DNA from: Anaerolineae bacterium
GTDB taxonomy: Bacteria > Chloroflexota > Anaerolineae > CG2-30-64-16
NCBI GenBank assembly: GCA_034434235.1
Contig: DAOTZV010000129.1
Location: 24,284 to 88,283, forward strand
Direction: 5' to 3'
Length of the DNA stretch: 64,000 bases
The translations under genes were made by a program, and so were the position numbers. Below are positions 13,855 to 61,466 of the stretch, one piece after another (positions within the stretch are counted from its first letter, which is position 1; the number at the start of each line of letters is the position of its first letter). The notes under the pieces were generated by a model, which searched no databases, had not been told where the DNA came from, and saw nothing but the letters and a program-made list of their open reading frames with translations.

Positions 13855-14242
13855 GACGATCTACTCCCTGGCAGAGGTTTCGCGCAAGCGGTCGGCTGTT
13901 ATTATACTCATTCATGCCATCCGGTCAACTTGTCAAGGGGTAGCATCAAGCTAAGGGACTTGCCCGCCGATCAAGTCGGCGGGCTACCGAACGACGCCCC
14001 GTGAACGGAGCTATAACGGCTGGCGGCAGAAGCCCGCGGCCGCCAGCCTGCTTCAGCGGGCGTAGCCTGGGTAGCACGGGTACTTGATGCCCGTGCGGCT
14101 GGGGGACGTGGTCCACGATCCCGCCGAGCGATGCGCAGGGAGCGGTGCGGGTCCGGTCTTGTTTTCTCCGCTATGTAATGTGATTCGTAACATTAAAATC
14201 GTATACTCGCAGTGGCGATTATGATCTGAAAGGAAGGGGAAG

Positions 14243-17200
14243 ATGGGAATTTCAGTGCGCGCTTTGGCAATTGCGGTCATTTCCGCTGTGCTCGTTGTGG
14301 CCGGCGCGGGCGCCCTGGTGTGGGCGACGGGCACACAGGATGGCACCGGCGCAATTGCTGGCGTCGTCTTCTTTGACAAAGATGCCGACGCTGCGCGCGG
14401 ACCGGCCGAAGGCGGACTTGCCGGAGTGACGGTGGAACTGCGCGATGGCGTGACCGGCGGCCAGGCCGTGCATCGCTTTGTGCAAACCGCCTCTGACGGC
14501 TCCTTCAGCTTCGCGGAGCTGAGCGCTGGCGCCTACACGGTCGCCGTCCTCCCGGCCGATCCCTTCACGGCCACGACGACCAGCCCCGTAGCGGTGGTGG
14601 TCGACTCTGCGCCTGTCGTCGGCGTGGATTTCGGCGCCACGCTTCTCCAGACTCTCACCGGCACCGAATTCAACGATCTGAACGGCGATGGCGCCAAGGG
14701 ACCACGCGAGCCGGGCATCGCCGGCTGGCTGATCCAGGTCTTCGACGATGTCAACGGCAACGGCCTGGTCGACATGGGTGAGGCGTTGTTGGGCTCGGCC
14801 GTTAGCGACCACCAGGGAAACTGGAAGGTGTCCGGGCTGTTGCCGGGCCGCCGCGTGGTCGTGCGTCGGCCTCCGGCCGGCGCAGAAGCGATGGCCGATC
14901 CGCTCTCGCTGACGGCCGAGGAGGCCGGCGGCGCCGGCCATCTGTGGAACGGCCGGCCCGAGGCGCGGACGGCGCCTGCCTCTGTCAATGCCGATGCCGC
15001 GGCCTATGTGCCGGGCGAGCTGTTGGTGGGCGTTCAGCCGGGCCTCTCGCTGGCGCGCGTCGCCGAGATCTTCCGGGATCTCGGTCTCGCGATCAGAGAG
15101 CCGTTGGGCGGAGATGCCTATCGGGTGGCGACGACCGAGGACGCGGCCGATGCCGCGCTGGATGCGTTGAAACGCCTGCCCGAGGTGCGTTACGCTGAGC
15201 GCAACGGCCTCGTCAGCGCGCTGCTCACGCCGACCGAGCCGCTCTTCAACGATCCGTTTTACATCTTTGCGCCGCAGACGATCAACGCGCCGACGGCCTG
15301 GGACATCTCCACCGGTTCGCCGGAGGTGATCGTTGCCATCGTGGATTCGGGCATCTCGCTTTCGCATCCTGAGTTTGCCGGTCGTCTGGTTGCCGGCTGG
15401 GACTACGTCAACGGCGACAGCGATCCGTCCGATGACAACGGCCATGGCACACACGTGGCCGGCATCGTGGCCGCAGCCATGAACGGCGAGGGTGTGGTCG
15501 GCATCGCGCCGAACGTCAGGCTGATGCCCGTCAAGATCCTCAACGCATCGAAGACCGCCACCTGGGCCAACACGGCCTTGGGGATCCGCTATGCGGCCGA
15601 CCACGGCGCGAAGGTGATCAACCTGAGCATGGGAGGCACTTCCTACTCGGCCGCGCTTCAGGATGCCATCCGTTACGCCGCCGGCAAGGGGGTCGTCATA
15701 GTCGCTGCTGCGGGCAATCAGGGGAGCAGCGGGCCGTTCTATCCGGCCTATTTCGAGGAGACGATCGCCGTCGGCGCGACGGACGAACACGACGAATATT
15801 GGACGATCTCCAACTATGGCAACTGGGTGGACGTAACGGCGCCCGGCGCCAGCATCTACAGCACCTGGTGGACGGCGGACAACCCCAATACCTATGGCTT
15901 CATGAGCGGGACTTCGATGGCGGCCCCGCACGTCAGCGGCCTGGCCGCCCTTCTGCTTTCGTATCGGCCCCAGCTTTCGGCGGCCGATGTGCGCGCCATC
16001 ATCCAGCAGACCGCGGTGGACAAGGGCGCGGCCGGCTTCGATATTTACTACGGTTGGGGCCGCATTGACGCAGGCGCGGCCATGACACTGGCGACGACCT
16101 GGATCCCCTACACTCCCACGCCGACGGCCACGGCGACGGCCACGCCGTCGGCCACGCCGACAGCGACGCCAACGAATACACCGACACCGACGTCGACGAA
16201 TACGCCGACAGCGACGCCAACGAATACACCGACACCGACGGCAACGAATACGCCGACGCCCACGCCGACCGCCACGCCGACGGCAGTGCCGTATCTGAAG
16301 CGGGTCAACGCGGGCGGGGCGAGCTTCACCGACAGCCTGGGCCAGGTGTGGGATCCGGATCAGGCGTATGCGACCGGTGGCTGGGGCTATGTGAGCGGCA
16401 CGGCCAAATCCTCGACCACTGCGGTGAACGGCACGGTGGACGACCTGCTCTACCAGAAGTACCGCGAGGGGATGACCGCATATCAATTCACGGTGCCGAA
16501 CGGTCAGTACCAGGTGACGCTCAAATTCGCCGAGTTCGCCGCCAGCAGTTCGAAGCAGCGCATCATGAAGATCACGATCGAGGGCGTGGTGGTGGAAAGC
16601 GCGCTCAACGTGCTGGCGTTGGCCGGCAAGGCCACGGCTTTCGATCGCACCTACACGACGACGGTGGCCGACGGCATACTGAACATCGCCTTTGCGCAGA
16701 ACGGCGGCAGCTACAAGCCGATGGTGTCGGCCATCGAAGTGAAAAGCGCCGAGGCCGGGCCGACCGGCACGGGCACCGAGCCGACGCCGATAGCAACAAA
16801 TGTGCCGATCGCAACGGCAACGAATACGCCGACCCCGACGCCGACGCCAACCCGGCCGGCCTACAGCGTGCGCGTGGACGCGGGTGGCCCGACCTTTACC
16901 GATGGCCAGGGGCTCACCTGGCAGGCCGACCAGGCCTTCAGCGCGGGGTCGTGGGGCTACATCGGTGGGTCGCCCGGCTCCTCGACGGTCGCAGTGGCCG
17001 GCACGAAGGACGACCTGCTGTTCCAGAAGTACCGACAGGGGATGTCGGAGTTCAGGTTCACGGTGCCGAACGGCAGCTATCAGGTGCAGTTGCGGTTCGC
17101 CGAGTTCGCGGCCACCGGGCCGGGCCAGCGGGTGATGGAGATCACCCTGGAAGGGACGCCGGTGGAGAGCGCGTTGGACGTGTATGCGGCGGCCGGCGGC

Positions 17201-17320
17201 GCGGCCAGGGCGCTGGACAGGACTTACCAGGTGACGGTGAACGACGGCATCCTGAACATCGGCTTTGCTCAGGTCGGGGGCGCCCTGCCGCCAATGGTGT
17301 CGGCTATCGAAATTAAATAG
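14243..17320 (+). CDS. Secreted S8 (subtilisin-like) serine peptidase with N-terminal carboxypeptidase-regulatory-like domains, a Pro/Thr linker and two C-terminal malectin-like carbohydrate-binding domains
   Basis: Signal peptide; catalytic triad motifs AIVDSGI (Asp), HGTHVAGI (His) and [11 protein letters not shown] (Ser). PT-rich linker [27 protein letters not shown]. Two copies of a ~150-aa module (YQKYREGM...FAEF...ILNI.FAQ.GG...PMVSAIE[VI]K) resembling malectin/di-glucose-binding domains. Confidence 0.85.
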
Positions 17321-26934: not shown

Positions 26935-26974
26935 AAAAGCTCACACAAAGACACAAAGAGCACAAATTGGACAA

Positions 26975-27016
26975 GATAGCAACCGGCACACTCCGCGCCG
27001 GTTGCTATCTTTTTAT
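26975..27016. terminator. Bidirectional intrinsic terminator (GATAGCAACCGGC-loop-GCCGGTTGCTATC-TTTTTA)
   Basis: 13-bp perfect stem plus T-run between the convergent AOR gene and the 27013-27921 gene. Confidence 0.7.
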
Positions 27017-41094: not shown

Positions 41095-41106
41095 GGTGGA
41101 TGCTCC

Positions 41107-41160
41107 GTGAAACGTAAAACGTAAAACGTAAAACGTAAAACGTGAAGCGTGAAATGTGAG
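41107..41160. repeat. Tandem heptamer array (R)AAACGT x7 (mRNA-sense ACGTTTY) filling the intergenic 5' leader of the Gfo/Idh/MocA gene
   Basis: Read directly: GAAACGT AAAACGT AAAACGT AAAACGT AAAACGT GAAGCGT GAAATGT; it ends 13 nt before the start codon. Confidence 0.7.
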
Positions 41161-41168
41161 CAGTTTGG

Positions 41169-43175
41169 TTACTGGATCTCGACCTCCCCACACCGGATCT
41201 GGCCCGGCGCGCCGGGCGCTTCGAGGATGAGCCGATAGGTTCCGCGCGGGGTCACGGGGTTCAGGTTGACGTCGTGATGGCTGCGCACGATCTCGCCGGC
41301 CACCCAGCGGTCGGCCGGCCAGAGGCCGAACGCGTCGTTCGGCCGGGCCATGCTCTCGCCCCACACCTGGCCCTGCGCGTCCACCAGCCGGAAGCGCGGG
41401 CGGAGCTCGCCGGCGGCCGGCCGGTCGCCGGGCCGCCAGTAGCTCGTTACGTGGATCCATGCGCTCGGCGGATGGAACAGGTCGTCGCGCGGGCGCAAGG
41501 CGGCCGGATCATACAGACAGGCCAACGGCTGCACGCCGTCCAGGGCCGGCCAATCGCTGCGAGACGGCACGTTCGACGGCAGGTCGGCCAGCCGATAGCG
41601 CTGGTCGTAGACGTGGATGGCGATCCCCGGCGGGAATACCTCGGTGATCAGCGGATAGCGCGCGGCGAACCAGCCCAACACCACGTTGTTCGGGTCCAGC
41701 TCCTGATGGTGCGACTGTACCACCCACACCGCGTCGAAGGGGGCCAGCCCCGCCAGCGGCCCCTCCACCTGGTCCGCATCGCGGATCCGGTCGGTGAACG
41801 GGACGAAGATGTCCTGCGGGCCGCGGAAGTAGCGCCGGAACGCGATCTGGACGTAGTCGGGCTGGATCAGGATGGCGTCATGGGGGCCGGCGTGCGCCTG
41901 CACGAACGCCGCGGCCTCGCGCCATGCCTCGCGGCGATTCTGCGGCGCCCAATCGTAGGGCAGCGCGGCCGCCGTCGTCGCGAAGATCAGGCCGGCCGCC
42001 GCCAACCCGACCGGCCGGCGCCAGGCCCACAGCCGGTCGAGCGCCCGGCCCAGCGCCACGCAGAGCGCCGGCGCCAGGGCGATCTGGTAGCGCGTTTCGG
42101 CGAAGGTGCGGCTGTCGCGGCTCAGCAGGGCGCCGCCGATCAGGATCACGACGAGCGGCCAGATGAGGATGTAGAGTCCGCCACTTCGCCGGTTGCCGCG
42201 ATCGGCCGGCAGGAAGCAGCCGAGGAGGGCCAGCGCTCCCATCCCCGCGGCCAGGATCGTCGTCAGGCGGGCGTCCCATGCGGGCCAGCCGAGCGTGTAG
42301 GCCCTCAGCATCGTCGCGAGGGGCGCCCACATTCCCTCGAACGGCCGACCCGGTACGGCCTCGGCACCGCTCACCCGCCACGCCGACCAGGCCAGCGGCA
42401 GGAAGAGCACTGCGGCGATGCCCAGGCCCAGGACGCCCAGCCAGAAATCGCGATCCGCGTCCCGTTCGCCCCGCCGCGTCCAGCGCGCCATCAGCAGCCA
42501 GAGCCCGGCCACCGGCAGCAGGAAGGCACTGTAGAGATAGCTGTAGAGCGCGGCCGCGAAGCCGCCGCTGAGCAACAGCAGGGCGAGCGAGGACGGCCCC
42601 CCCCTCCCCCCAACTTTGGGGGGCGCCCCCCCTTCCCCCCAATCTTGGGGGGCCAGGGGGGCGGCCCCCCCCTCCCCCCCAATGTTGGGGGGCCAGGGGC
42701 GCGGGGGCGTGCGCCATGCGCCATGCGCCGCCCGCAGGAGGCCGTAAAGCCCCACCAGCGCGAAGGCCGTCGCCGGCATGAACATGCGCGCTTCCTGGCT
42801 ATACCACACCAGGAACGGGTTGATCGCCAGCAGGAGCGCGGCGAACGCGGCCCCGCGTGGCCCGCTCAGCCGCCGGCCGATTCCGTAGAGCGGCAACACG
42901 GCCAGCGCGCCGATCAGCGCGCCGAGGGAACGCACGGCCAGATCGCTCCCGCCGACCAGCGCCGTCCAGCCGTGCAGCAGGAGGTAATAGAGCGGCGGGT
43001 GCTTGTCCTGGACGAGCGCCATGCCCACGCGCCAGATCTCGCCGGCCGGCCGACCGGCCCAGTACGTACTGACGACCTCGTCGAACCACAGGCTATGGTA
43101 CGTGAGATGGTAGAAGCGCACGCCGAGCGCCAGGACCAGGATCCAGCTCAGCGGATGGCACAGTAATCGCCTCAT
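41169..43175 (-). CDS. Membrane glycosyltransferase, family 39 / PMT-ArnT-like (dolichyl-phosphate-mannose-protein mannosyltransferase superfamily)
   Basis: N-terminal multi-TM region with the family-typical WFDEVVSTYWAG...DKHPPLYYLL, and a large C-terminal soluble domain. It contains a low-complexity Pro/Gly insertion encoded by the repeat at 42596-42716. Confidence 0.7.
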   Translation of the reverse strand: MRRLLCHPLSWILVLALGVRFYHLTYHSLWFDEVVSTYWAGRPAGEIWRVGMALVQDKHPPLYYLLLHGWTALVGGSDLAVRSLGALIGALAVLPLYGIGRRLSGPRGAAFAALLLAINPFLVWYSQEARMFMPATAFALVGLYGLLRAAHGAWRTPPRPWPPNIGGEGGAAPLAPQDWGEGGAPPKVGGRGGPSSLALLLLSGGFAAALYSYLYSAFLLPVAGLWLLMARWTRRGERDADRDFWLGVLGLGIAAVLFLPLAWSAWRVSGAEAVPGRPFEGMWAPLATMLRAYTLGWPAWDARLTTILAAGMGALALLGCFLPADRGNRRSGGLYILIWPLVVILIGGALLSRDSRTFAETRYQIALAPALCVALGRALDRLWAWRRPVGLAAAGLIFATTAAALPYDWAPQNRREAWREAAAFVQAHAGPHDAILIQPDYVQIAFRRYFRGPQDIFVPFTDRIRDADQVEGPLAGLAPFDAVWVVQSHHQELDPNNVVLGWFAARYPLITEVFPPGIAIHVYDQRYRLADLPSNVPSRSDWPALDGVQPLACLYDPAALRPRDDLFHPPSAWIHVTSYWRPGDRPAAGELRPRFRLVDAQGQVWGESMARPNDAFGLWPADRWVAGEIVRSHHDVNLNPVTPRGTYRLILEAPGAPGQIRCGEVEIQ
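42596..42716. repeat. Three tandem copies of a palindromic G/C-run element (C7-8 T C6-7 / AAYNTT / G6) inside the GT39 coding sequence
   Basis: Read directly: CCCCCCCCTCCCCCC-AACTTT-GGGGGG, CCCCCCCTTCCCCCC-AATCTT-GGGGGG, CCCCCCCCTCCCCCCC-AATGTT-GGGGGG. Translated on the gene strand as ...PPNIGGEGGAAPLAPQDWGEGGAPPKVGGRGG.... Confidence 0.7.
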
Positions 43176-45204
43176 TGCACGATCACCTTGCCCAACAGGA
43201 TGGCGTCTTCTCCGCGCGGCCGTTGGCTGATGGCGCGCGCATTGCCGGCCGTCGGGTCATAGAGGCCGACCTCGATCTCGTATTCGCCGGCCGGCATGTC
43301 GGCCGGGAGCCGGATCTGATGCTCGTCCAGGACCAGATCGCCGGCCCGCCAGCTCGTGGTAGCCGCGCTGCCCTGGCCGGGGCGACTGTCGTGGCCGGCC
43401 CACACGATGCTCCCATCTTCCCGTGGCGGGCCGAGCACGTGCGTGAAGACGGTCCAGTCGGTCGTCGGGGTCTCGGCGGCCCGCCACCACAGTTGCAGGT
43501 AGATGATCTCGCCGGGGTGATAGATCGGCTCGTTCAGGTCGTAGCCCCATAGTGCGATGCCCGGCCAGCGGGTGCGGGTCACTGCAGTGGGCCACCGGCT
43601 GAGCGGAGCGCCGGCCGGTACCCGAAATGCCCGCGCGTAGACCCTGCCGCTGCGATCCAGAAAGACCTTGATCTCCTGCGCGTCCCTGTAGAGCTGCTGC
43701 AACAGGCCGCTGCCGCGGAAATCTTCGTGCTCGATCACGATGTAAGTCGCCTCCTGTGTCGCCTGTCCGAGCGCCACCTGGGTGATCCAGGCCGAACGGC
43801 CATCGAAGTGGCGCACGGTCGGCCCGTTGCGCCAGGCGAAGGCCAGGGTGGCATCGCTGGCCGGCCGCGGACTGATGTAGATGGCTTCGTCGGCCGACAG
43901 CGTCTGCACGTATTGCCCGATCTGCCACAATCCCTCATCGTAGGCGTAGAACAGATCGAGGCTGCGCCCCCAGACGACGAAATAGTCGCGGATGTTCCAG
44001 GCGGCGCTGCCCACCAGCAGGAGCGCCGCGATGGCCGGGCCGGCGATCGGCCGCAGCCGCCGGTCGGGCGCATAGCCGGGAGCCGCTCCGTCCTGAACTG
44101 CGCAATGGTGGCCAGGCCCAGGCCGCTCCACAGCGCGATCACCGGCGTGATGCCGAGCGCCCGCCGGAAGTGGGGCGCGTACTCGCTGAGCATGGTCGTC
44201 AACAGCATCGTGCCCGCGGCCAGGAAGAGCACGCCGGACCCCGGCTGTCTCCACCGTCGCAGCGCCGCCAGCAGCCCCAGGTAAAACGGGATGGCAATCA
44301 GGGCGTCGAGCGCCGGCCGGCCGGGGATGTTGCTGCGCGGATCGGCGTCTCCCGCCACGCTGAACATGCCCAGGGCCTTAAGCAGGTTGCCGGCGAGCAC
44401 ACCGACCGTCTCCTGCAGCGGTTGGCCGGGCCGGATGACGATCACCTGACCGCTGCGAAGGGTCGCCAGTTCCGGGTGTTGCAGGAAGAAGACGGCCAGC
44501 GGCGCGGCCAAAGCCGCCGCCAGCAGCGCGGCCAGGATCAGGCCGCGACCGCGACCGGCCAGTCGCTGCGGCGCGACGAGCCGCAAATAGACCAGGATGC
44601 CGCCCATCATGGGCCAAAGCAGCCAGGCGGCCGGATAGGTGTAAACGCTCAAGCCCAACGCCGCGGCCAACCCCACCCAGGCGACCGGCCGATCGGTACG
44701 CAACCCCGCCAACAGCGTCCACAGGATCACCGTCAGGAACAGCGGCACCAGGATCGGCTCGATTGCCACCCGGCTGAAGGTGATGTGCCAGCGCAGGACG
44801 GCCAACACGGTCGCGGCCAGCAACGGCAACTGTCGCGGCAAGCGTTCATCCGCCCGCACCATCTCCCGGCCGAGCGCATAGACCGCCGGCACCGTCAAGG
44901 TGCCGATCAGCGCGGTCACCGCGCGACTGACGGCCGGCCCGGCCGGGAACAGCCGAAACGCGCAGCTCTCCAGATAGATGAGCATGGCCGGCAGGCCGAA
45001 ATCGCCCGGAAAGAAGACCGGATGGTAATCGGGCCGGGTGATCACCCGCCAGGCTTCGAGCGCCTCCAACGCTTCATCGTAGTGGAAGCCGGGCGGAATC
45101 TGTTCCAGGTTTACCAGGCGCAGCGCTGCCGCCCACAACGTGACCAGGACCAGGCCGGGCCAGGGCGACCGACGCCAGGCGACAATGAACGAATGGACGG
45201 ACAT
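43172..45204 (-). pseudogene. Frameshifted GT39/PMT-like membrane glycosyltransferase, tandem paralog of 41169-43175
   Basis: Track ORF 43735-45204 carries the TM N-terminal half and ORF 43172-44254 the C-terminal domain in a +1 frame; homology to the neighbour is continuous across about 44050-44090, implying a frameshift or sequencing error. The C-termini are alike (...GEYEIEVGLYD... versus ...GTYRLILEAPG...). Confidence 0.55.
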
Positions 45205-56494: not shown

Positions 56495-56932
56495 TTATGC
56501 GTCATTCATCGGTCGGGCTGATCGGTTGCACAATCCCCGCGCTCGATACACCTCGGCCGCCTCGCGCACGAACGCGGCCGTCTCGTGCGCCTGGAACTCG
56601 TCGGCCAGGCGGGCCGCCAGCGCCAGCATCTCTTCGTATGTGGCACGGCCCGGCCGCAGCGTCTCGTACATGCGCAGCAGCTCGGCGTTGGGGACGGCGG
56701 TCAGCTCGGCCGCGCGGCGCAGGTTGGCCGCCAGCTGCGGAAAGCCGGCCCGCGCGGCGATGGCGGCCTGCGCGCGCAACGCCTCGGCCGTGATGCGCAG
56801 GTCATCGTCGGTCAGTTCGCCCGCGGCCAACCGCTCCAGCGTGATCTCGTCCAGCGGCCGGCCGCTCGCCGCCCGCAACTCTTCACCTGCGTTCTCCGTC
56901 AACGGATAAACACTCTCCATGCTGATCTCCAA
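56495..56932 (-). CDS. pduE: Coenzyme B12-dependent diol/glycerol dehydratase small (gamma) subunit (PduE/DhaB3-like)
   Basis: ...LRMYETLRPGRATYEEMLALAARLADEFQAHETAAFVREAAEVYRARGL aligns with the PduE C-terminus (IYNALRPFRS...AAFVRESAEVYQQR). Confidence 0.75.
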   Translation of the reverse strand: MEISMESVYPLTENAGEELRAASGRPLDEITLERLAAGELTDDDLRITAEALRAQAAIAARAGFPQLAANLRRAAELTAVPNAELLRMYETLRPGRATYEEMLALAARLADEFQAHETAAFVREAAEVYRARGLCNRSARPMNDA

Positions 56933-56968
56933 CCCCCAACCCCCAATCCCTAACCCCTATCCCCCGCC

Positions 56969-59287
56969 TCACTCCGGCTCCCAATCGAACCACAGCTCCT
57001 GCGGCGGCCTGTCGGCGACCTCGTCGGTCTCGCGGCGGTGCAGGAGCGCGGTCTTGACGATCAGGCGCAATCGCGCCCAGTTATCAATCTTCACCCCCAC
57101 CGGCGCCGGCGGGACGCCTTTGGCGTAGCGCGCCGCGTTTCGGCCGATCGCCCGGTACGTCTCCAGCGTCAGGCTCGGCGATTGCGGAAAGAGCTCCAGG
57201 TTGTTGAGCCGGGCCAACCCGCGCTTGTGGATGACGGCCGTGCCGCGCGATTGCAGGCCGATGGCGATGCCCGATCCGCTGAGCTCTGCGCCCGCGTAGC
57301 CGATGGCCGCCAGGTCGGAGCTGCGGTACACCTTCACCACGCGGGCGGTCAACCCTTCGTCGGCCACGCCCGCCAGGATGGCCGCCAACACCGCCTCGTG
57401 CTCCAGCCCCCCGATGGTGCGGGTGAGCGCCGCGTTGAACGCCGGGCCGACCGCGACGATCACTTCGGGTCGGGTGCCCGGCCGGGCCGGACCCAGCTCC
57501 ACCAGCTTCGGCGAGGCCGGGCCGACGTGCGGCGCGACGAATTGGCGCGGGGACTGCGCCTGGCGGATGGCCTGGAGCCGGGCCCAGCGTTCCCCTGCCA
57601 GCCGATAGCCGGTGCCCGGGCCGGTGTAGTCGTTCGGATCGTTGATCGCGCTGAGGACACGGAAGCGACCGGCCCCTCCGGCCGTCTCTGCTGCACGGGG
57701 AGAGGAAGTCCGGCTCTCCCCTCTCCTTGCAGGAGAGGGGGCGGGGGAGAGGTCGAAGATCGCGGCCGGCTGCAGATAGTCCCCCGCCACGCGCTGGCGG
57801 CCCATCTCCAGGATGTTGGCGGCCACATCTGCAAATCCGCGACGGCGCAGCGCGTCGGCCACGGCCAACATGCCCAGATCGCTCGCCAGGAAGCGGTCGG
57901 CCGCGGCCAGGTCGGCCACGGCGTCGCGGTCGGGCATGTCGTCGCTGCTGTGCGCCGTCGTGGCCGCGGCCACCTCGTCGTCGCTGATCGGCGGCAGGCC
58001 CAGCTCCGCGTAGACCGCCTGGATCGCCCGGCCGGCCCGCTCGCGCACCGCCAGGGCCGCCTTTTCGGTGATGGGGACAATCCCGCCGTCCACCTGCATG
58101 TCGCGCTGGAGCACGTTCCAGTCGTCGAAGTCCTCGGCGTCGAAGTTGCCGCCGCCGAACAGATTGTCGCGCTTGGGCACCGCGCTGTAGCCGGAGCAGA
58201 TGAAGTCGGTGCCGGGGATGAACTGGAGCATGAGCTTGGCCGATTTGCGCATGGTCGAGTGCGACGCGAGCGCGTCGTTGCCCGAGGCGCATTCCAGGCC
58301 GAGCATGGAGGCGAGCAGGTTCTCGGCGAGCACCGCGCGCACGCCGGCCGGCAGCGCTTCGGGCAAGGCGATGCATGAGATCGAGCCGTTCTGCACCCCC
58401 TGGCTGCCGGCGCCCTTCGTCACCAGCAGGCAACGCGCCTCCAGGTAGAGCATCGAGCAGCGTTCGGCGTGGCCCATCAGCGCCTCAGAGCCGGTGCCCG
58501 AGGTGAAGCGCACCTTGATTCCGCGCGATGCGTAGGCCGCGGCCAGGAACGCCTTCGACCAGGGGGTGTCGTCGCCGTCCACGAAGGCCCGTTCGGTGCC
58601 GTAGACCGAGAGGGTCTCGGCGTAGGTGGTCAACCCCTTCAGCGCGATCCGCAGGCCCAACGCCTCCTCGACCGCGCATTGGGTGAGGACGCCGCCGCGG
58701 CCCGTTTGCGTGCCGACGAGGACGGCCAGCGCGTTGAGCGGCGCGTTACGGGCCACGCGCACGGTCGTTTCGACCTCCGCGAAGCCGCGCAGGGCCGCCT
58801 CGGCCGCGTCGGCCGCGAGGAGCGCGGGATGCTCCTTCCAGTTGGTCACGTGCGCCTGGTTGGCGGGCGTCCGCCGGACGCGCATCTTGGCGAGGCCGAT
58901 CATCATCTCGAGCACGTTCATGTGGCGGATGATCTCGACCAGCTTGGCCGGGGTGCAACCGGCCGCCAGCCGGCGCACGGCCGCCTGCGGCACGTTGATG
59001 TCGGCCAACATGCGCGCGATCTGGAGGGACGGCGTCGCCATGGCCTCTTCGGCCACGGCCAGATCGAGCGCGTGGTCGGCGATGAAGATATCCAGGCTAT
59101 CGAACTCGGCCCGCGGCTTGCCGTCCATCTCGACCACGCGGCCGGCCTCCAGGCGCAGGGACGGCTGCGGGTCGTAGGGGCTATCGGCGACGATCAGCCC
59201 GGCCTCGGGCCATGGCTCGACGAACGTCTCTTTGTTGATGTCGCGTTCGGCCAGGATGGCGAAACGACGGGATGGGTTGGGTGTCAT
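56969..59287 (-). CDS. pduCD: Fused large (alpha) plus medium (beta) subunits of coenzyme B12-dependent diol/glycerol dehydratase (PduC-PduD fusion), with a ~30-aa low-complexity insertion
   Basis: Residues 1-~560 match PduC/DhaB1 closely, including QAHVTNWKEHP, DGDDTPWSKAFLA, GSQGVQNGSISC and FDDWNVLQRD. Residues ~580-772 match PduD (EVIVAVGPAFNA..., GLTARVVKVYRSSDLAAIGYAGAELSGSGIAIGLQSRGTAVIHKRGL...LELFPQSPSLTLETYRAIGRNAARYAKG). Confidence 0.85.
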   Translation of the reverse strand: MTPNPSRRFAILAERDINKETFVEPWPEAGLIVADSPYDPQPSLRLEAGRVVEMDGKPRAEFDSLDIFIADHALDLAVAEEAMATPSLQIARMLADINVPQAAVRRLAAGCTPAKLVEIIRHMNVLEMMIGLAKMRVRRTPANQAHVTNWKEHPALLAADAAEAALRGFAEVETTVRVARNAPLNALAVLVGTQTGRGGVLTQCAVEEALGLRIALKGLTTYAETLSVYGTERAFVDGDDTPWSKAFLAAAYASRGIKVRFTSGTGSEALMGHAERCSMLYLEARCLLVTKGAGSQGVQNGSISCIALPEALPAGVRAVLAENLLASMLGLECASGNDALASHSTMRKSAKLMLQFIPGTDFICSGYSAVPKRDNLFGGGNFDAEDFDDWNVLQRDMQVDGGIVPITEKAALAVRERAGRAIQAVYAELGLPPISDDEVAAATTAHSSDDMPDRDAVADLAAADRFLASDLGMLAVADALRRRGFADVAANILEMGRQRVAGDYLQPAAIFDLSPAPSPARRGESRTSSPRAAETAGGAGRFRVLSAINDPNDYTGPGTGYRLAGERWARLQAIRQAQSPRQFVAPHVGPASPKLVELGPARPGTRPEVIVAVGPAFNAALTRTIGGLEHEAVLAAILAGVADEGLTARVVKVYRSSDLAAIGYAGAELSGSGIAIGLQSRGTAVIHKRGLARLNNLELFPQSPSLTLETYRAIGRNAARYAKGVPPAPVGVKIDNWARLRLIVKTALLHRRETDEVADRPPQELWFDWEPE
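57670..57752. repeat. In-frame palindromic insertion inside the dehydratase gene (…CTCCCCTCTCC-TTGCA-GGAGAGGGGG…)
   Basis: Inverted repeat read directly; encodes DLSPAPSPARRGESRTSSPRAAETAGGAGR, which is absent from canonical PduC at this position. Confidence 0.55.
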
Positions 59288-59352
59288 GGGTAGTCGAGTA
59301 GTCGAGTAGTCAGATAGTCAAGTAGTCAGATAGTCGGGTAATCGGACAGTCA
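59288..59352. repeat. Tandem octamer array (GAGTAGTC-like x8; mRNA-sense GACTACTC) directly abutting the dehydratase start codon
   Basis: Read directly: GGTAGTC GAGTAGTC GAGTAGTC AGATAGTC AAGTAGTC AGATAGTC GGGTAATC GGACAGTC; no canonical SD between the array and the ATG. Confidence 0.7.
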
Positions 59353-59360
59353 GCGATGCT

Positions 59361-59396
59361 CCAAGCCGGTCTGTGACCGGCGGTCGGGGGTCACCC
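59361..59396. repeat. Family B hairpin element (inverted orientation: GCCGGTC-TGT-GACCGGC + GGTCGGGGG)
   Basis: Its reverse complement closely matches the 26-mer at 6317 and 28209; it lies downstream of the isomerase gene end. Confidence 0.5.
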
Positions 59397-59524
59397 TCTG
59401 AGCCTGAATGCGTGGTCTACTGAGTCTTGTGTGCTTTGGCGGCCCGGACTGCGTTGAGATAGGTCTCTTCGGTCTTGAGCACGTGTTCGAGCACCTGCAT
59501 CGTATCAAGCCTCGGGATTGCTTT

Positions 59525-60277
59525 CTACGCCTTCCCCATCCTGCGCAGGTTGTCCAGGCATCGCGCCACCACTTCCAGCGGCGGGTACTTGTAGCTTTCC
59601 TGCTCGACGATGTACCACTCGGTGCCGCCCTGCGTCTCGCACAGCTCGAAGACGCGTTGCCACGGCACATCCCCTTCGCCCAGGATCGCCAGCGGATCGG
59701 TCGCCGAGTACTCCTTGAGGTGCACGGTGATCGCCCGGCCGGGGTAGCGCGCCAGGTAGGGGATCGGGTCGCCGCCGCCGTGCAGCGCGTTGCCGATGTC
59801 CACCTGCATGATCACCTCTTTGCGGGTGTTGCTGAAGAAGGTATCCCACGGCAGCTCGCCTTCCAGCGGCTGGAATTCGATGGCGTGATTGTGATAGCCG
59901 ACGAGCATGCCGTAGGGCCGGAGCCGCTCGGCGATCTCGTTGAAGATGCCGGCCGTGCGCAGCCACGCGGCGCGCGAGCTGCGATATTCCTCGGCCAGCG
60001 CCGGCACCACCAGGTACTTGTTGCCGAGGATCTGGTTGAACTCGACGGTGCGGAGCAGCTCATCGCCCAAGAGGGTGTCGAGCCGGATGTGCGTGCCGCA
60101 GCACTTCAAGCCCAGGTCGTCGAGCATGGCGCGCAGTTCCCTGGCCGTGCGATCGTAGTAGCCGGCGAACTCAACGCCGACGTAGCCCATCTTCGCCACC
60201 GCGGCCAACGTGCCGGGCAGATCCGCCGCGCACTCGTGGCGAACGGAATAGAGTTGGAGTCCGATTGGGATGGTCAT
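59525..60277 (-). CDS. Sugar phosphate isomerase/epimerase (xylose-isomerase-like TIM barrel)
   Basis: Family-typical blocks IGLQLYSV, GYHNHAIEF and the metal-ligand pattern; SD GGAGG before the ATG. Confidence 0.7.
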   Translation of the reverse strand: MTIPIGLQLYSVRHECAADLPGTLAAVAKMGYVGVEFAGYYDRTARELRAMLDDLGLKCCGTHIRLDTLLGDELLRTVEFNQILGNKYLVVPALAEEYRSSRAAWLRTAGIFNEIAERLRPYGMLVGYHNHAIEFQPLEGELPWDTFFSNTRKEVIMQVDIGNALHGGGDPIPYLARYPGRAITVHLKEYSATDPLAILGEGDVPWQRVFELCETQGGTEWYIVEQESYKYPPLEVVARCLDNLRRMGKA

Positions 60278-60294
60278 GGGATGTCCTCCGATAG

Positions 60295-60365
60295 TCAAAC
60301 GTCAAACGTAAAACGTCAAACGTAAAACGTCAAACGTGAAACGTGAGACGTTTTACGTTTTACTT
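60295..60365. repeat. Tandem heptamer array (C/A)AAACGT x8 followed by two inverted copies (ACGTTTT), occupying the whole intergenic leader of the isomerase gene
   Basis: Read directly: CAAACGT CAAACGT AAAACGT CAAACGT AAAACGT CAAACGT GAAACGT GAGACGT TTTACGT TTTAC; same unit as the array at 41107-41160. Confidence 0.7.
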
Positions 60366-61466
60366 TTCACGATACTCTATCCCCGCCGCCTCGATCTCCG
60401 CAGCCGTCACTTCGCGGCCGAGGTGGCTGGAGAGATAGATGCCCTCGGTGATCAGGGCGGTCTTGAGCGCCAGGCCGGCCGTGTCGAGCAGCGGCACGCG
60501 GCCGAGCTGCGCCCAAACCCAGTGGCGCTGCGAATGGTCGAAGCCGGCCTCGAGCGGGTTGCACTGATGCCAGCGCCAGTCGGCCTGTTTGATGTCGAAC
60601 GTGGCGTTCATCTCCATGTCCGACAGGGTGGTGAAGTAGCCGAACGGCTCGACCCGCAACCCGGCGTGCGAGCCGAACACGCGGTCGCCGTCCGAGCTGT
60701 CGGCGTGGATCGCCCATGCTTCTTCGATGAAGTAGGTGATCCCGCCGGCCAGGCGCACCAGGCCCATGCCGAGCTCCTCGACGTTGTAATTGCCCGAGGC
60801 CCGGCGGTCGGGGTACATGTTGTCGAGCATCTGATAGGTGCGGCCCGAGACGGTCTCGACGGCCGGATTGCCGAGCAACCACATCATGCGCGCGATGTGA
60901 TAGACCGCCATGTCCACCAGCGCGCCGCCGCCGGCCATCTCTTTCTGGACGAAGGCCGGCGTGCCGTAGCCGTCCACCCACGGCCGGCCGCGGCGGCGGT
61001 AATGCGACGACTTGGCGTAGTAGATCTGGCCGAGCTGGCCTTCGTCAATCATCCGTTTGGCCGCGCGCGCCTCCGGCGTGTAGAGCGTGTTGAGCTGGAT
61101 GTGGAGCATCCGGCCGGTGCGCCGGGCGGTGTCGTACATCGCCTTTGCCTCTGAGTATACCCAAGACATCGGCTTTTCGCAATAGACGTTCTTGCCCGCC
61201 TCCAGCGCGGCGATGGTCACCGCCGCGTGCAATCGGTTGTGCAACGCCACGTCTACCGACTGGATGTCGTCTCGTCGGAGCAGCTCCCGGTAGTCGCTGT
61301 AAACCGCCACCTCCGGGCCAATGGCCTGGGCCACCCGCCGCGCTTCGTCCTCGCGCAGGTCGCACACGGCCACGATCTCGGCTTCGGGGACCTCTTTGTA
61401 GCGCTCGACGTGGACCTTGCCGATCTGGCCCACGCCGATGATGCCGATGCGGACTTTGTCGGTCAT
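60360..61466 (-). CDS. Gfo/Idh/MocA-family NAD(P)-dependent oxidoreductase
   Basis: N-terminal Rossmann fold MTDKVRIGIIGVGQIGKVHVERY, EKP motif (YCEKPMS), 368 aa. Confidence 0.8.
   Translation of the reverse strand: MTDKVRIGIIGVGQIGKVHVERYKEVPEAEIVAVCDLREDEARRVAQAIGPEVAVYSDYRELLRRDDIQSVDVALHNRLHAAVTIAALEAGKNVYCEKPMSWVYSEAKAMYDTARRTGRMLHIQLNTLYTPEARAAKRMIDEGQLGQIYYAKSSHYRRRGRPWVDGYGTPAFVQKEMAGGGALVDMAVYHIARMMWLLGNPAVETVSGRTYQMLDNMYPDRRASGNYNVEELGMGLVRLAGGITYFIEEAWAIHADSSDGDRVFGSHAGLRVEPFGYFTTLSDMEMNATFDIKQADWRWHQCNPLEAGFDHSQRHWVWAQLGRVPLLDTAGLALKTALITEGIYLSSHLGREVTAAEIEAAGIEYREK

Follow-up and report, generated by a model that had tools for sequence, protein, structure and literature searches.

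An octamer tandem repeat abuts the start codon of a diol dehydratase gene without Shine-Dalgarno sequence and belongs to a dispersed repeat class of Chloroflexota

Gene context

The window (the whole 64-kb stretch of DNA that was analysed) comes from a Chloroflexota bacterium related closely to Caldilineaceae/Litorilinea. It contains a gene for a B12-dependent diol/glycerol dehydratase in which the large and medium subunits are fused (PduC-PduD, 772 aa; 56969..59287, minus strand; here called pduCD). In its product, residues 6-512 match Pfam Dehydratase_LU (profile positions 3-509) and residues 615-727 match Dehydratase_MU; a low-complexity linker of Pro, Ser, Ala and Arg (about residues 520-600) connects the two domains. 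One residue differs between this protein and the metagenome consensus P0001. The order on the minus strand is ABC exporters, a GFO/IDH/MocA oxidoreductase gene, an (ACGTTTN)n array, GGAGG and a xylose-isomerase-like TIM-barrel gene, followed by a spacer of 237 nt, pduCD, a G-rich heptamer array, GGAG, the gene for a PduE-like dehydratase small subunit (pduE; 56495..56920, minus strand) and an FtsX permease gene. No microcompartment shell or reactivase gene was found among the immediate neighbours of pduCD that were examined.

The 237-nt spacer before pduCD contains, in this order, the remains of a DinB_2 gene, a hairpin rich in GC, the motif GGAG, 7 nt and an octamer array. The remnant (59417..59500, minus strand) consists of 27 in-frame codons of the DinB_2 C-terminus (MQVLEHVLKTEETYLNAVRAAKAHKTQ*) and has a GAGG 9 nt upstream of its ATG. 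In five relatives (L005, L006, L007, L127, L129) an intact DinB_2 gene of 140-143 aa lies between the TIM-barrel gene and pduCD. At the DNA level the remnant hardly differs from the 3' end of the gene in these relatives; judged by this comparison, it marks a deletion that took place recently and reshaped the pduCD spacer. The predicted GC-rich hairpin (59361..59387, minus strand; core GCCGGUC-ACA-GACCGGC) lies upstream of the octamer array and is not terminator-like, as it has no T-tract. The GGAG (59359..59362, minus strand) is located 7 nt 5' of the octamer array and 72 nt from the ATG.

The octamer array

Between the DinB_2 remnant and the pduCD ATG, in non-coding DNA, eight units with the consensus GACTAYYY follow each other head to tail (59351->59288, minus strand; 64 nt). 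In mRNA sense they read, 5' to 3', GACTGTCC GATTACCC GACTATCT GACTACTT GACTATCT GACTACTC GACTACTC GACTACCC. The ATG (59287-59285) comes directly after the last unit, with 0 nt between them. The array consists of 22 C, 18 T, 15 A and 9 G (14% G on the sense strand) and contains neither ATG nor GTG; its single TTG (59321-59319) is out of frame and is lost in the conspecific L002.

The array is not a chance arrangement of letters. TRF called it at 59290-59351 with a period of 8/16 and 6.9 copies. GACTAYYYGACTAYYY, allowing for at most two mismatches, had 7 overlapping matches versus 0.2 expected, a number reached in none of 100 shuffles, and a separate periodicity detector gave no comparable array in 20 shuffles. 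Nor is it an assembly artefact, since the identical 8-unit array is present in four independent metagenome assemblies besides the window. An earlier note on this DNA had described an array abutting the start codon; sequence, TRF and shuffles agree that it is real. The count of about eight units given there was right, whereas the nine units listed there contained one GACTACTC too many. A search for (GACTAYYY)n within the 64-kb window returned this one octamer array only.

Start codon and initiation signals

The pduCD ATG and the conserved start motif MxxSRRFAIL (SRRFAIL) line up in all relatives. Hence the start codon is correct, and the concern that the true start of the dehydratase gene might lie elsewhere is answered by homology: the annotated ATG is the one that adjoins the array. 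The last 25 nt of the leader form a duplex with the anti-Shine-Dalgarno (anti-SD) sequence at +0.1 kcal/mol, i. e. they hold no canonical SD, as compared with -9.5, -5.8 and -7.2 kcal/mol at three neighbouring genes. The absence of an SD at this gene, also claimed before, is thereby confirmed.

Other signals were looked for around the start. Translational coupling is excluded, because no upstream ORF with a canonical start runs through the octamer array to an ATGA overlap. A consensus scan of 59200-60500 gave no sigma-70-like promoter. As a promoter inside the array we considered the TTGACT at the junction of units 4 and 5; it was rejected, having no -10 partner and being lost in L002. With the Rfam covariance models nothing in the window reached the gathering score and nothing in 59150-59650 reached E<=1, so that a cobalamin riboswitch or another known structured RNA was rejected.

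Predicted folding of the leader

The pduCD leader together with the first 30 nt of the coding sequence has a predicted minimum free energy of -7.4 kcal/mol over 94 nt (z -0.36). Shuffled sequences fold equally weakly, so that the weak folding is due to composition (14% G). Among all 12,782 sliding 94-nt segments of the window (mean -35.2 kcal/mol, sd 8.0) this leader takes rank 7 by weak folding, and the few segments that fold less stem mostly from the strand opposite the G-rich array at 56.9 kb, which is not transcribed. Two orthologous pduCD leaders have predicted energies of -44.3 and -39.9 kcal/mol over 131 nt. A role of the array in translation initiation, as suggested previously, is physically plausible given a leader that is almost free of structure. 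The additional suggestion that it could be the target of a CsrA-like protein is rejected, because the octamer array contains no GGA, whereas a CsrA/RsmA leader would have several GGA motifs, one of them over the SD.

Variation within the species and among relatives

Four conspecific contigs, assembled from metagenomes of different samples, match the window at 99.5-99.8% identity, and all of them carry the array. With the window this makes five alleles of 8 units each, in which a single SNP occurs (in one contig); the metagenome scan gave no alleles beyond these five. Thus the comparison of copy numbers between strains proposed in the earlier note shows a constant 8 units in all five alleles of consensus assemblies, which does not indicate a phase-variable contingency locus but, with consensus assemblies only, is a weak test for one. 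In pduCD itself the four contigs differ from the window at 4-9 sites, 3-8 of them synonymous and 1 nonsynonymous. Purifying selection acts on the gene in the species that bears the array, and therefore a leader consisting of the octamer array must allow its expression.

The situation is different in the relatives. In six of them, with 87-91% protein identity, the GACTAYYY array is absent before pduCD. Five (L128, L129, L005, L006, L007) have no array of any kind at this position, and most relatives without an array keep an SD-like site 6-9 nt before the ATG. In L127 (90%) an unrelated array, (ACGTGAAA)x18.8, runs into the pduCD ATG, likewise without SD. In neighbouring spacers the relatives carry 7-8-nt units such as GGGAGACA, TGCGTAT, GGTAGATT, GGAAACAA, AGATTGGT, CAGGAAT and GAATGCG. 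Since relatives have either no units or differing ones in given spacers, arrays must be gained, lost and replaced rapidly there. The earlier note had named absence of the array from related genomes without a difference in expression as an argument against its proposal; the first half of this, the absence, is what we found.

Other arrays of the window

Further tandem arrays occur in the window, although most other spacers of the 64 kb have none. A G-rich heptamer array (GGGGTTG/GGGATTG, about 5 units; 56929..56965, minus strand) lies between the pduCD stop and the GGAG and ATG (56920) of pduE. The copy number is 5.3 in the window, L001 and L003 and 7.9 in the conspecific L002 (7323-7377). At the matching site, L127 has a similar array of GGGGCTG units. 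An (ACGTTTN)n heptamer array (60294..60360, minus strand) lies between the stop of the GFO/IDH/MocA gene and the GGAGG and ATG (60277) of the TIM-barrel gene; its RNA is predicted to form a long hairpin just upstream of the SD (-34.6 kcal/mol, z -3.8). A (CGTTTTA)n heptamer array of the same unit family (41106..41160, minus strand) is intercistronic as well and is followed by GGAG and an ATG (41094). The near-palindromic family ACGTTTN/ACGTGAAA is thus found at two intercistronic sites of the window 19 kb apart, and in L127 (1117-1260) before pduCD.

On the plus strand, an octamer array of another unit, (ACACAAAG)x3 (26943..26966), directly follows a stop codon and precedes a terminator-like hairpin. 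The whole element (26943-27012) continues from the three units into a perfect hairpin, gatagcaaccggc...gccggttgctatc, and TTTTT, i. e. this array is 3' untranslated and not a leader. Two repeats lie inside ORFs. At 42596-42709 (minus strand) the long ORF 41169-43256 of the GC3 map contains three units of about 29-40 nt in tandem that are all C6-loop-G6 hairpins (ggccccccaaNattggggggg); this may be the sign of a gene boundary that went unrecognised, or of a repeat element. At 16116-16284 (plus strand) repeats of period 6/12/48 (ACGCCG-type) lie within a 1032-aa ORF (14225-17320) and are probably coding low-complexity sequence, as the period is a multiple of three.

It had been implied that three repeat leaders on this catabolic island form a common feature. 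Other arrays do exist there (60294-60360, 41106-41160), but a shared design is not apparent. The units are unrelated and their physical properties differ, one array being unstructured, one hairpin-forming and one G-rich. They are not kept at these genes in the relatives at 87-91%, where other arrays substitute for them, and the octamer family also precedes unrelated housekeeping genes across Chloroflexota. A structure-free leader was considered as the property that all arrays have in common and was discarded, since the (ACGUUUN)n RNA forms a strong hairpin (z -3.8) and G is abundant in another array. With arrays differing in structure in this way, an unstructured leader cannot explain the general build-up of 7-8-nt arrays.

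The octamer as a dispersed family

The search for (GACTAYYY)n suggested in the earlier note was run across species, with (GACTAYYY)3 or longer as the query and one genome per species. It returned at least 118 genome stretches. Among the matches listed, 78 are from Chloroflexota (Anaerolineae, Ardenticatenaceae, Thermoflexales, Chloroflexia, Thermomicrobiales and Dehalococcoidia), 14 from Saprospiraceae, 5-6 from Desulfobacteraceae or related organisms, and 20 are scattered. Chloroflexota make up only a few percent of species. Often a genome has several matches, up to about 12 loci in one Ardenticatenaceae MAG among the matches listed.

The orientation of the arrays was analysed with clusters as units and ORF-based gene calls, again for loci among the matches listed. 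Arrays nearest a gene start were in sense orientation in 65 cases and in antisense orientation in 30 (p=4e-4); arrays nearest a stop showed no bias in the same test. A cruder test on the longest flanking ORF gave 33 versus 29 and hence no bias among the matches listed, but inverted array pairs confounded it and it was therefore replaced by the cluster-based one. The sense bias accordingly depends on the treatment of inverted pairs and on gene calls made from ORFs. Predicted folding offers a physical explanation for the prevalence of sense arrays at starts: over 98 arrays of the family the sense strand folds with -0.046 and the antisense strand, which can form G-U pairs, with -0.200 kcal/mol/nt (p=8e-17), a difference of about fourfold.

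Among the matches listed, 32 Chloroflexota sense arrays have an ORF with an ATG start and at least 100 aa no more than 45 nt downstream. An SD is absent in 16 of these 32, and the gap to the start is 8 nt or less in 10. Ten ORFs behind such arrays were tested; all ten proved to be real genes, their Pfam domains beginning at the N-terminus and their functions being unrelated. Thus the arrangement seen at pduCD, a sense array that abuts a start without SD, recurs in 10-16 Chloroflexota genes among the matches listed.

In the listed loci (L009-L126), the window and relatives, periods 7 and 8 dominate with 57 and 89 arrays, compared with 1, 5, 10 and 0 for periods 5, 6, 9 and 10; the period-7 arrays in the fetched loci were not selected by the octamer query. 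Their units are very diverse, and the 7-8-nt ruler is explained so far by the polymerase-footprint hypothesis only.

Three further observations concern the surroundings and the sequence of the family. Both orientations are present in 17 of the 109 clusters among the matches listed (e. g. L029, L041, L045, L059, L087, L103, L125), as (RRRTAGTC)n after the upstream stop and (GACTAMNN)n before the next SD/ATG. Such inverted pairs could form long imperfect hairpins if they are co-transcribed, or a promoter could lie in between. Near octamer arrays, 23S_rRNA_IVP genes (PF05635, four-helix bundle) were found in L021, L038, L039, L046, L050 and L084, immediately beside the array in L038, L039, L046 and L084 (E=5e-35 for the copy in L084). 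This family includes accessory proteins of diversity-generating retroelements; as regards the idea of a mobile cassette, the 64-kb window holds no 23S_rRNA_IVP gene. Finally, the GACUAC core and its variant GACUACCA (32 units in L117, 29-284) are complementary to the universal 16S rRNA segment UGGUAGUC ('GGUAGUC'), the 806R primer site. The complementarity is probably due to chance, because this rRNA segment is base-paired in helix 24. A text search of the literature for the octamer sequences gave primer-like coincidences only.

Interpretation

These results show that the pduCD array is one instance of a phylum-wide, fast-changing class of 7-8-nt intergenic repeats in Chloroflexota. The view that it is a regulatory leader specific for the dehydratase gene most likely does not hold; it is the local case of a dispersed, fast-evolving repeat class.

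For its role at pduCD we prefer, with roughly even confidence, the interpretation that a slippage-born repeat has been tolerated or favoured as an unstructured, SD-independent initiation region. We infer three elements of this account, namely the origin by slippage, the displacement of the SD, and the support of translation by lack of structure (with S1). Between the genes of Chloroflexota, tandem repeats of 7-8 nt would arise and turn over fast, with replication slippage as the most likely cause. At this locus the recurrent (GACTAYYY)n unit would have been inserted between the former SD (the GGAG now 72 nt upstream) and the pduCD ATG; possibly the single GGAG at 59359-59362 is this ancestral SD, displaced by the array. 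The octamer array would then be the entire translation initiation region of pduCD. Its C/U/A-rich, G-poor sense RNA would keep the start codon single-stranded: with so little G the mRNA around the start should be unable to fold, and the 30S subunit could therefore load without SD pairing, presumably aided by ribosomal protein S1, a binder of single-stranded pyrimidine/A-rich RNA. In this manner the array would permit initiation without an SD in a generic way and would not be a switch specific to this gene.

Precedent exists for the central step, since a locally unstructured start region suffices for translating SD-less mRNAs (Scharff et al. 2011, PMC3121790). Selection for unstructured RNA at the start would agree with both the sense preference of start-proximal arrays and the fourfold difference in folding between the strands. 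Yet about one third of the start-proximal arrays among the matches listed are antisense, which is a counterpoint to this interpretation, and slippage alone does not explain why one unit recurs across Chloroflexota classes and Saprospiraceae. Initiation of pduCD behind the array could also be worse than in the SD-bearing relatives.

A rather unlikely alternative takes the array for a neutral or selfish microsatellite expansion without function. pduCD would then be translated despite the array, perhaps poorly, and the sense bias would reflect only weaker counter-selection or strand-asymmetric mutation. The fast turnover at the locus fits this well: the octamer array is absent from the six relatives at 87-91%, with a different array in its place in L127, neighbouring spacers hold diverse unrelated units, the G-rich array (56929-56965) varies in copy number within the species, and the pduCD spacer was recently reshaped by the DinB_2 deletion. 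Likewise the genes downstream of family arrays share no functional theme. A neutral origin does not, however, readily account for the recurrence of the GACTAYYY unit in many Chloroflexota classes with several loci per genome, nor for a bias of 65:30 at starts and none at stops among the matches listed. In addition, the five conspecific alleles have exactly 8 units and are one SNP apart, and pduCD is under purifying selection though the array fills its whole initiation region.

The conserved unit could instead be read by a protein. In this case a dedicated multimeric or cooperative RNA-binding protein, either an OB-fold protein of the S1 or Csp type or a ring-shaped one such as TRAP or HutP, would bind the array with one protomer per 8-nt unit and thereby define a post-transcriptional regulon. 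MacGregor (2015, PMC4679880) proposes an analogue and notes that CspB binds heptamer repeats with one protein per unit. The GACTA core and the pyrimidine tail are conserved over distant Chloroflexota and Saprospiraceae, and the strict period of 7-8 nt and the sense bias beside starts would also be expected. We nevertheless consider such a protein quite unlikely. No candidate was identified in this analysis, the array is not conserved at orthologous genes, and one third of the start-proximal arrays are antisense. Moreover, several unrelated units are found beside starts within this genome, so that a single specific binder cannot serve all start arrays.

Likewise quite unlikely is an extended form of this idea, in which Chloroflexota as a whole, together with Saprospiraceae, would possess an alternative system of initiation or regulation with (GACUAYYY)n as its cis element, read by a factor or a ribosomal site. 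The dedicated factor (OB-fold or ring-shaped, one protomer per 8 nt) or ribosomal site would recruit or block ribosomes at SD-less starts, and the 7-8-nt ruler of STRR, TAACTGA, GATAGRA and GACTAYYY repeats, which recurs in several filamentous phyla, would be the footprint of that factor. If this were true, the family would be a post-transcriptional regulon and no slippage debris.

Another very unlikely possibility is that the displaced GGAG (59359-59362) still serves as a standby site, from which the 30S subunit (or a 70S ribosome) would slide over 72 nt to the first AUG. Its distance of exactly 7 nt from the array is as expected for an array inserted between SD and ATG, and the way would be clear, the array being unstructured and free of ATG and GTG, with a single out-of-frame TTG that is lost in L002. 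A lone 4-mer may be due to chance, though, most other start-abutting arrays of the family have no SD-like motif just 5' of them, and the mechanism is not established over such distances. An element acting at the DNA level (promoter or operator repeats, or a phase-variable spacer that tunes transcription by copy number) is most improbable, even though some pathogens control phase variation by short-unit repeats located between promoter and start (reviewed in PMC4679880) and inverted array pairs occur in 17 of 109 clusters among the matches listed: no sigma-70-like promoter was found in 59200-60500 and the chance TTGACT is lost in L002, the copy number does not vary in the five conspecific alleles, the 8-bp period is out of step with the helical repeat, and the orientation bias relative to the downstream start points to a constraint at the RNA level.

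Significance

The start of translation without SD is still only partly understood in bacteria, and heptamer-type repeats fill the spacers between genes in some large-genome bacteria, which are often filamentous. The pduCD locus amounts to a natural experiment, as an essential-looking catabolic gene is led among close relatives by an SD, by eight octamers or by 19 copies of an unrelated unit. The system is also tractable: the octamer family at SD-less starts includes cultured Chloroflexota relatives such as Anaerolinea or Ardenticatena strains, and the cultured strains Neolewinella agarilytica DSM 24740 and N. persica DSM 23188 are carriers too. If the arrays merely supply structure-free RNA, they illustrate how a ribosome-loading site can be rebuilt by slippage; if instead a factor binds them, a new regulon is defined.

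Comparison with known repeat systems

The closest precedent for the octamer array are the TAACTGA heptamer direct repeats of marine Beggiatoaceae, some Cyanobacteria and Bacteroidetes (MacGregor 2015, Front Microbiol, PMC4679880). These are intergenic tandem direct repeats as well, mostly in forward orientation and a few nt from the start codon. Since their unit has a single G, the leaders are mostly without SD, and binding of S1, Csp or CsrA has been proposed for them (PMC4679880). As for the octamer family, the downstream genes are functionally unrelated. The pduCD array corresponds in its position (forward, 0 nt to the ATG, no SD), whereas its unit is different (GACTAYYY, 8 nt), even if the rotated octamer (TATCTGA+C) matches TAACTGA at 6 of 7 positions. 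Many dispersed sets are found in other Chloroflexota, at multiple loci and before unrelated Pfam families, as compared with one octamer array in the 64 kb of the window. Further differences are the carriers, which for the octamer are mainly Chloroflexota, a phylum absent from the TAACTGA study (PMC4679880), and the length: 8 units here and up to about 30 in relatives, versus typically 2-6 for TAACTGA. The sense bias of the octamer (about 2:1) is weaker, and this genome mixes several unrelated units. TAACTGA arrays differ by whole units between close strains, and their carriers are filamentous with large genomes.

A broader frame is given by LSSR(5-11), long simple sequence repeats with units of 5-11 nt (Mrazek, Guo and Shah 2007, as summarised in PMC4679880 and PMC4692102). 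The octamer array belongs to them as a head-to-tail repeat of a unit in this size range, beyond chance length and in a non-coding location. According to these summaries the excess of heptamers was attributed to polymerase slippage, and the dominance of periods 7 and 8 in our loci matches this excess. In Chloroflexus aurantiacus, (GATAGRA)n satellites are scattered over the genome, and a Chloroflexi genome tops the list of bacterial satellites (Subirana and Messeguer 2019, PMC6749651). Like the octamer, the repeats of both surveys are, as far as these accounts go, non-coding, have units around 7 nt, are scattered over the genome and are over-represented in large genomes of non-pathogens; in the same accounts slippage tied to the polymerase footprint is proposed. 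To the extent that they are represented there, neither the LSSR nor the GATAGRA survey includes the GACTAYYY octamer, its phylum-wide spread or a placement at SD-less starts.

Cyanobacterial STRR heptamers and the G-rich intergenic heptamers GGGGATT/GGGAATC of Nostoc and Xanthomonas (Rehm et al. 2015, PMC4692102) are intergenic or intercistronic (e. g. pecE-pecF) and vary in length between relatives. By its sequence the window's array at 56929-56965 (GGGGTTG/GGGATTG) closely resembles the quadruplex-prone GGGGATT repeats of Nostoc. The octamer array, in contrast, has little G on the mRNA strand and is unable to form G-quadruplexes, and while the repeats of Rehm et al. lie closer to the upstream ORF (PMC4692102), it abuts the start codon. 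In the heptamer-repeat literature compared here (PMC4679880, PMC4692102, PMC6749651) neither the GACTAYYY octamer nor a start-proximal role in Chloroflexota is reported. The family-level pattern of octamer arrays at SD-less starts thus appears to be undescribed, whereas the single pduCD array is ordinary for its lineage.

With the known systems of SD-independent initiation (Scharff et al. 2011, PMC3121790; Nakagawa et al. 2017, PMC5397173) pduCD has in common that an SD is absent and that the predicted structure at the AUG is minimal. In those cases, however, the lack of structure is a diffuse property of the sequence; in pduCD it is the product of a tandem repeat.
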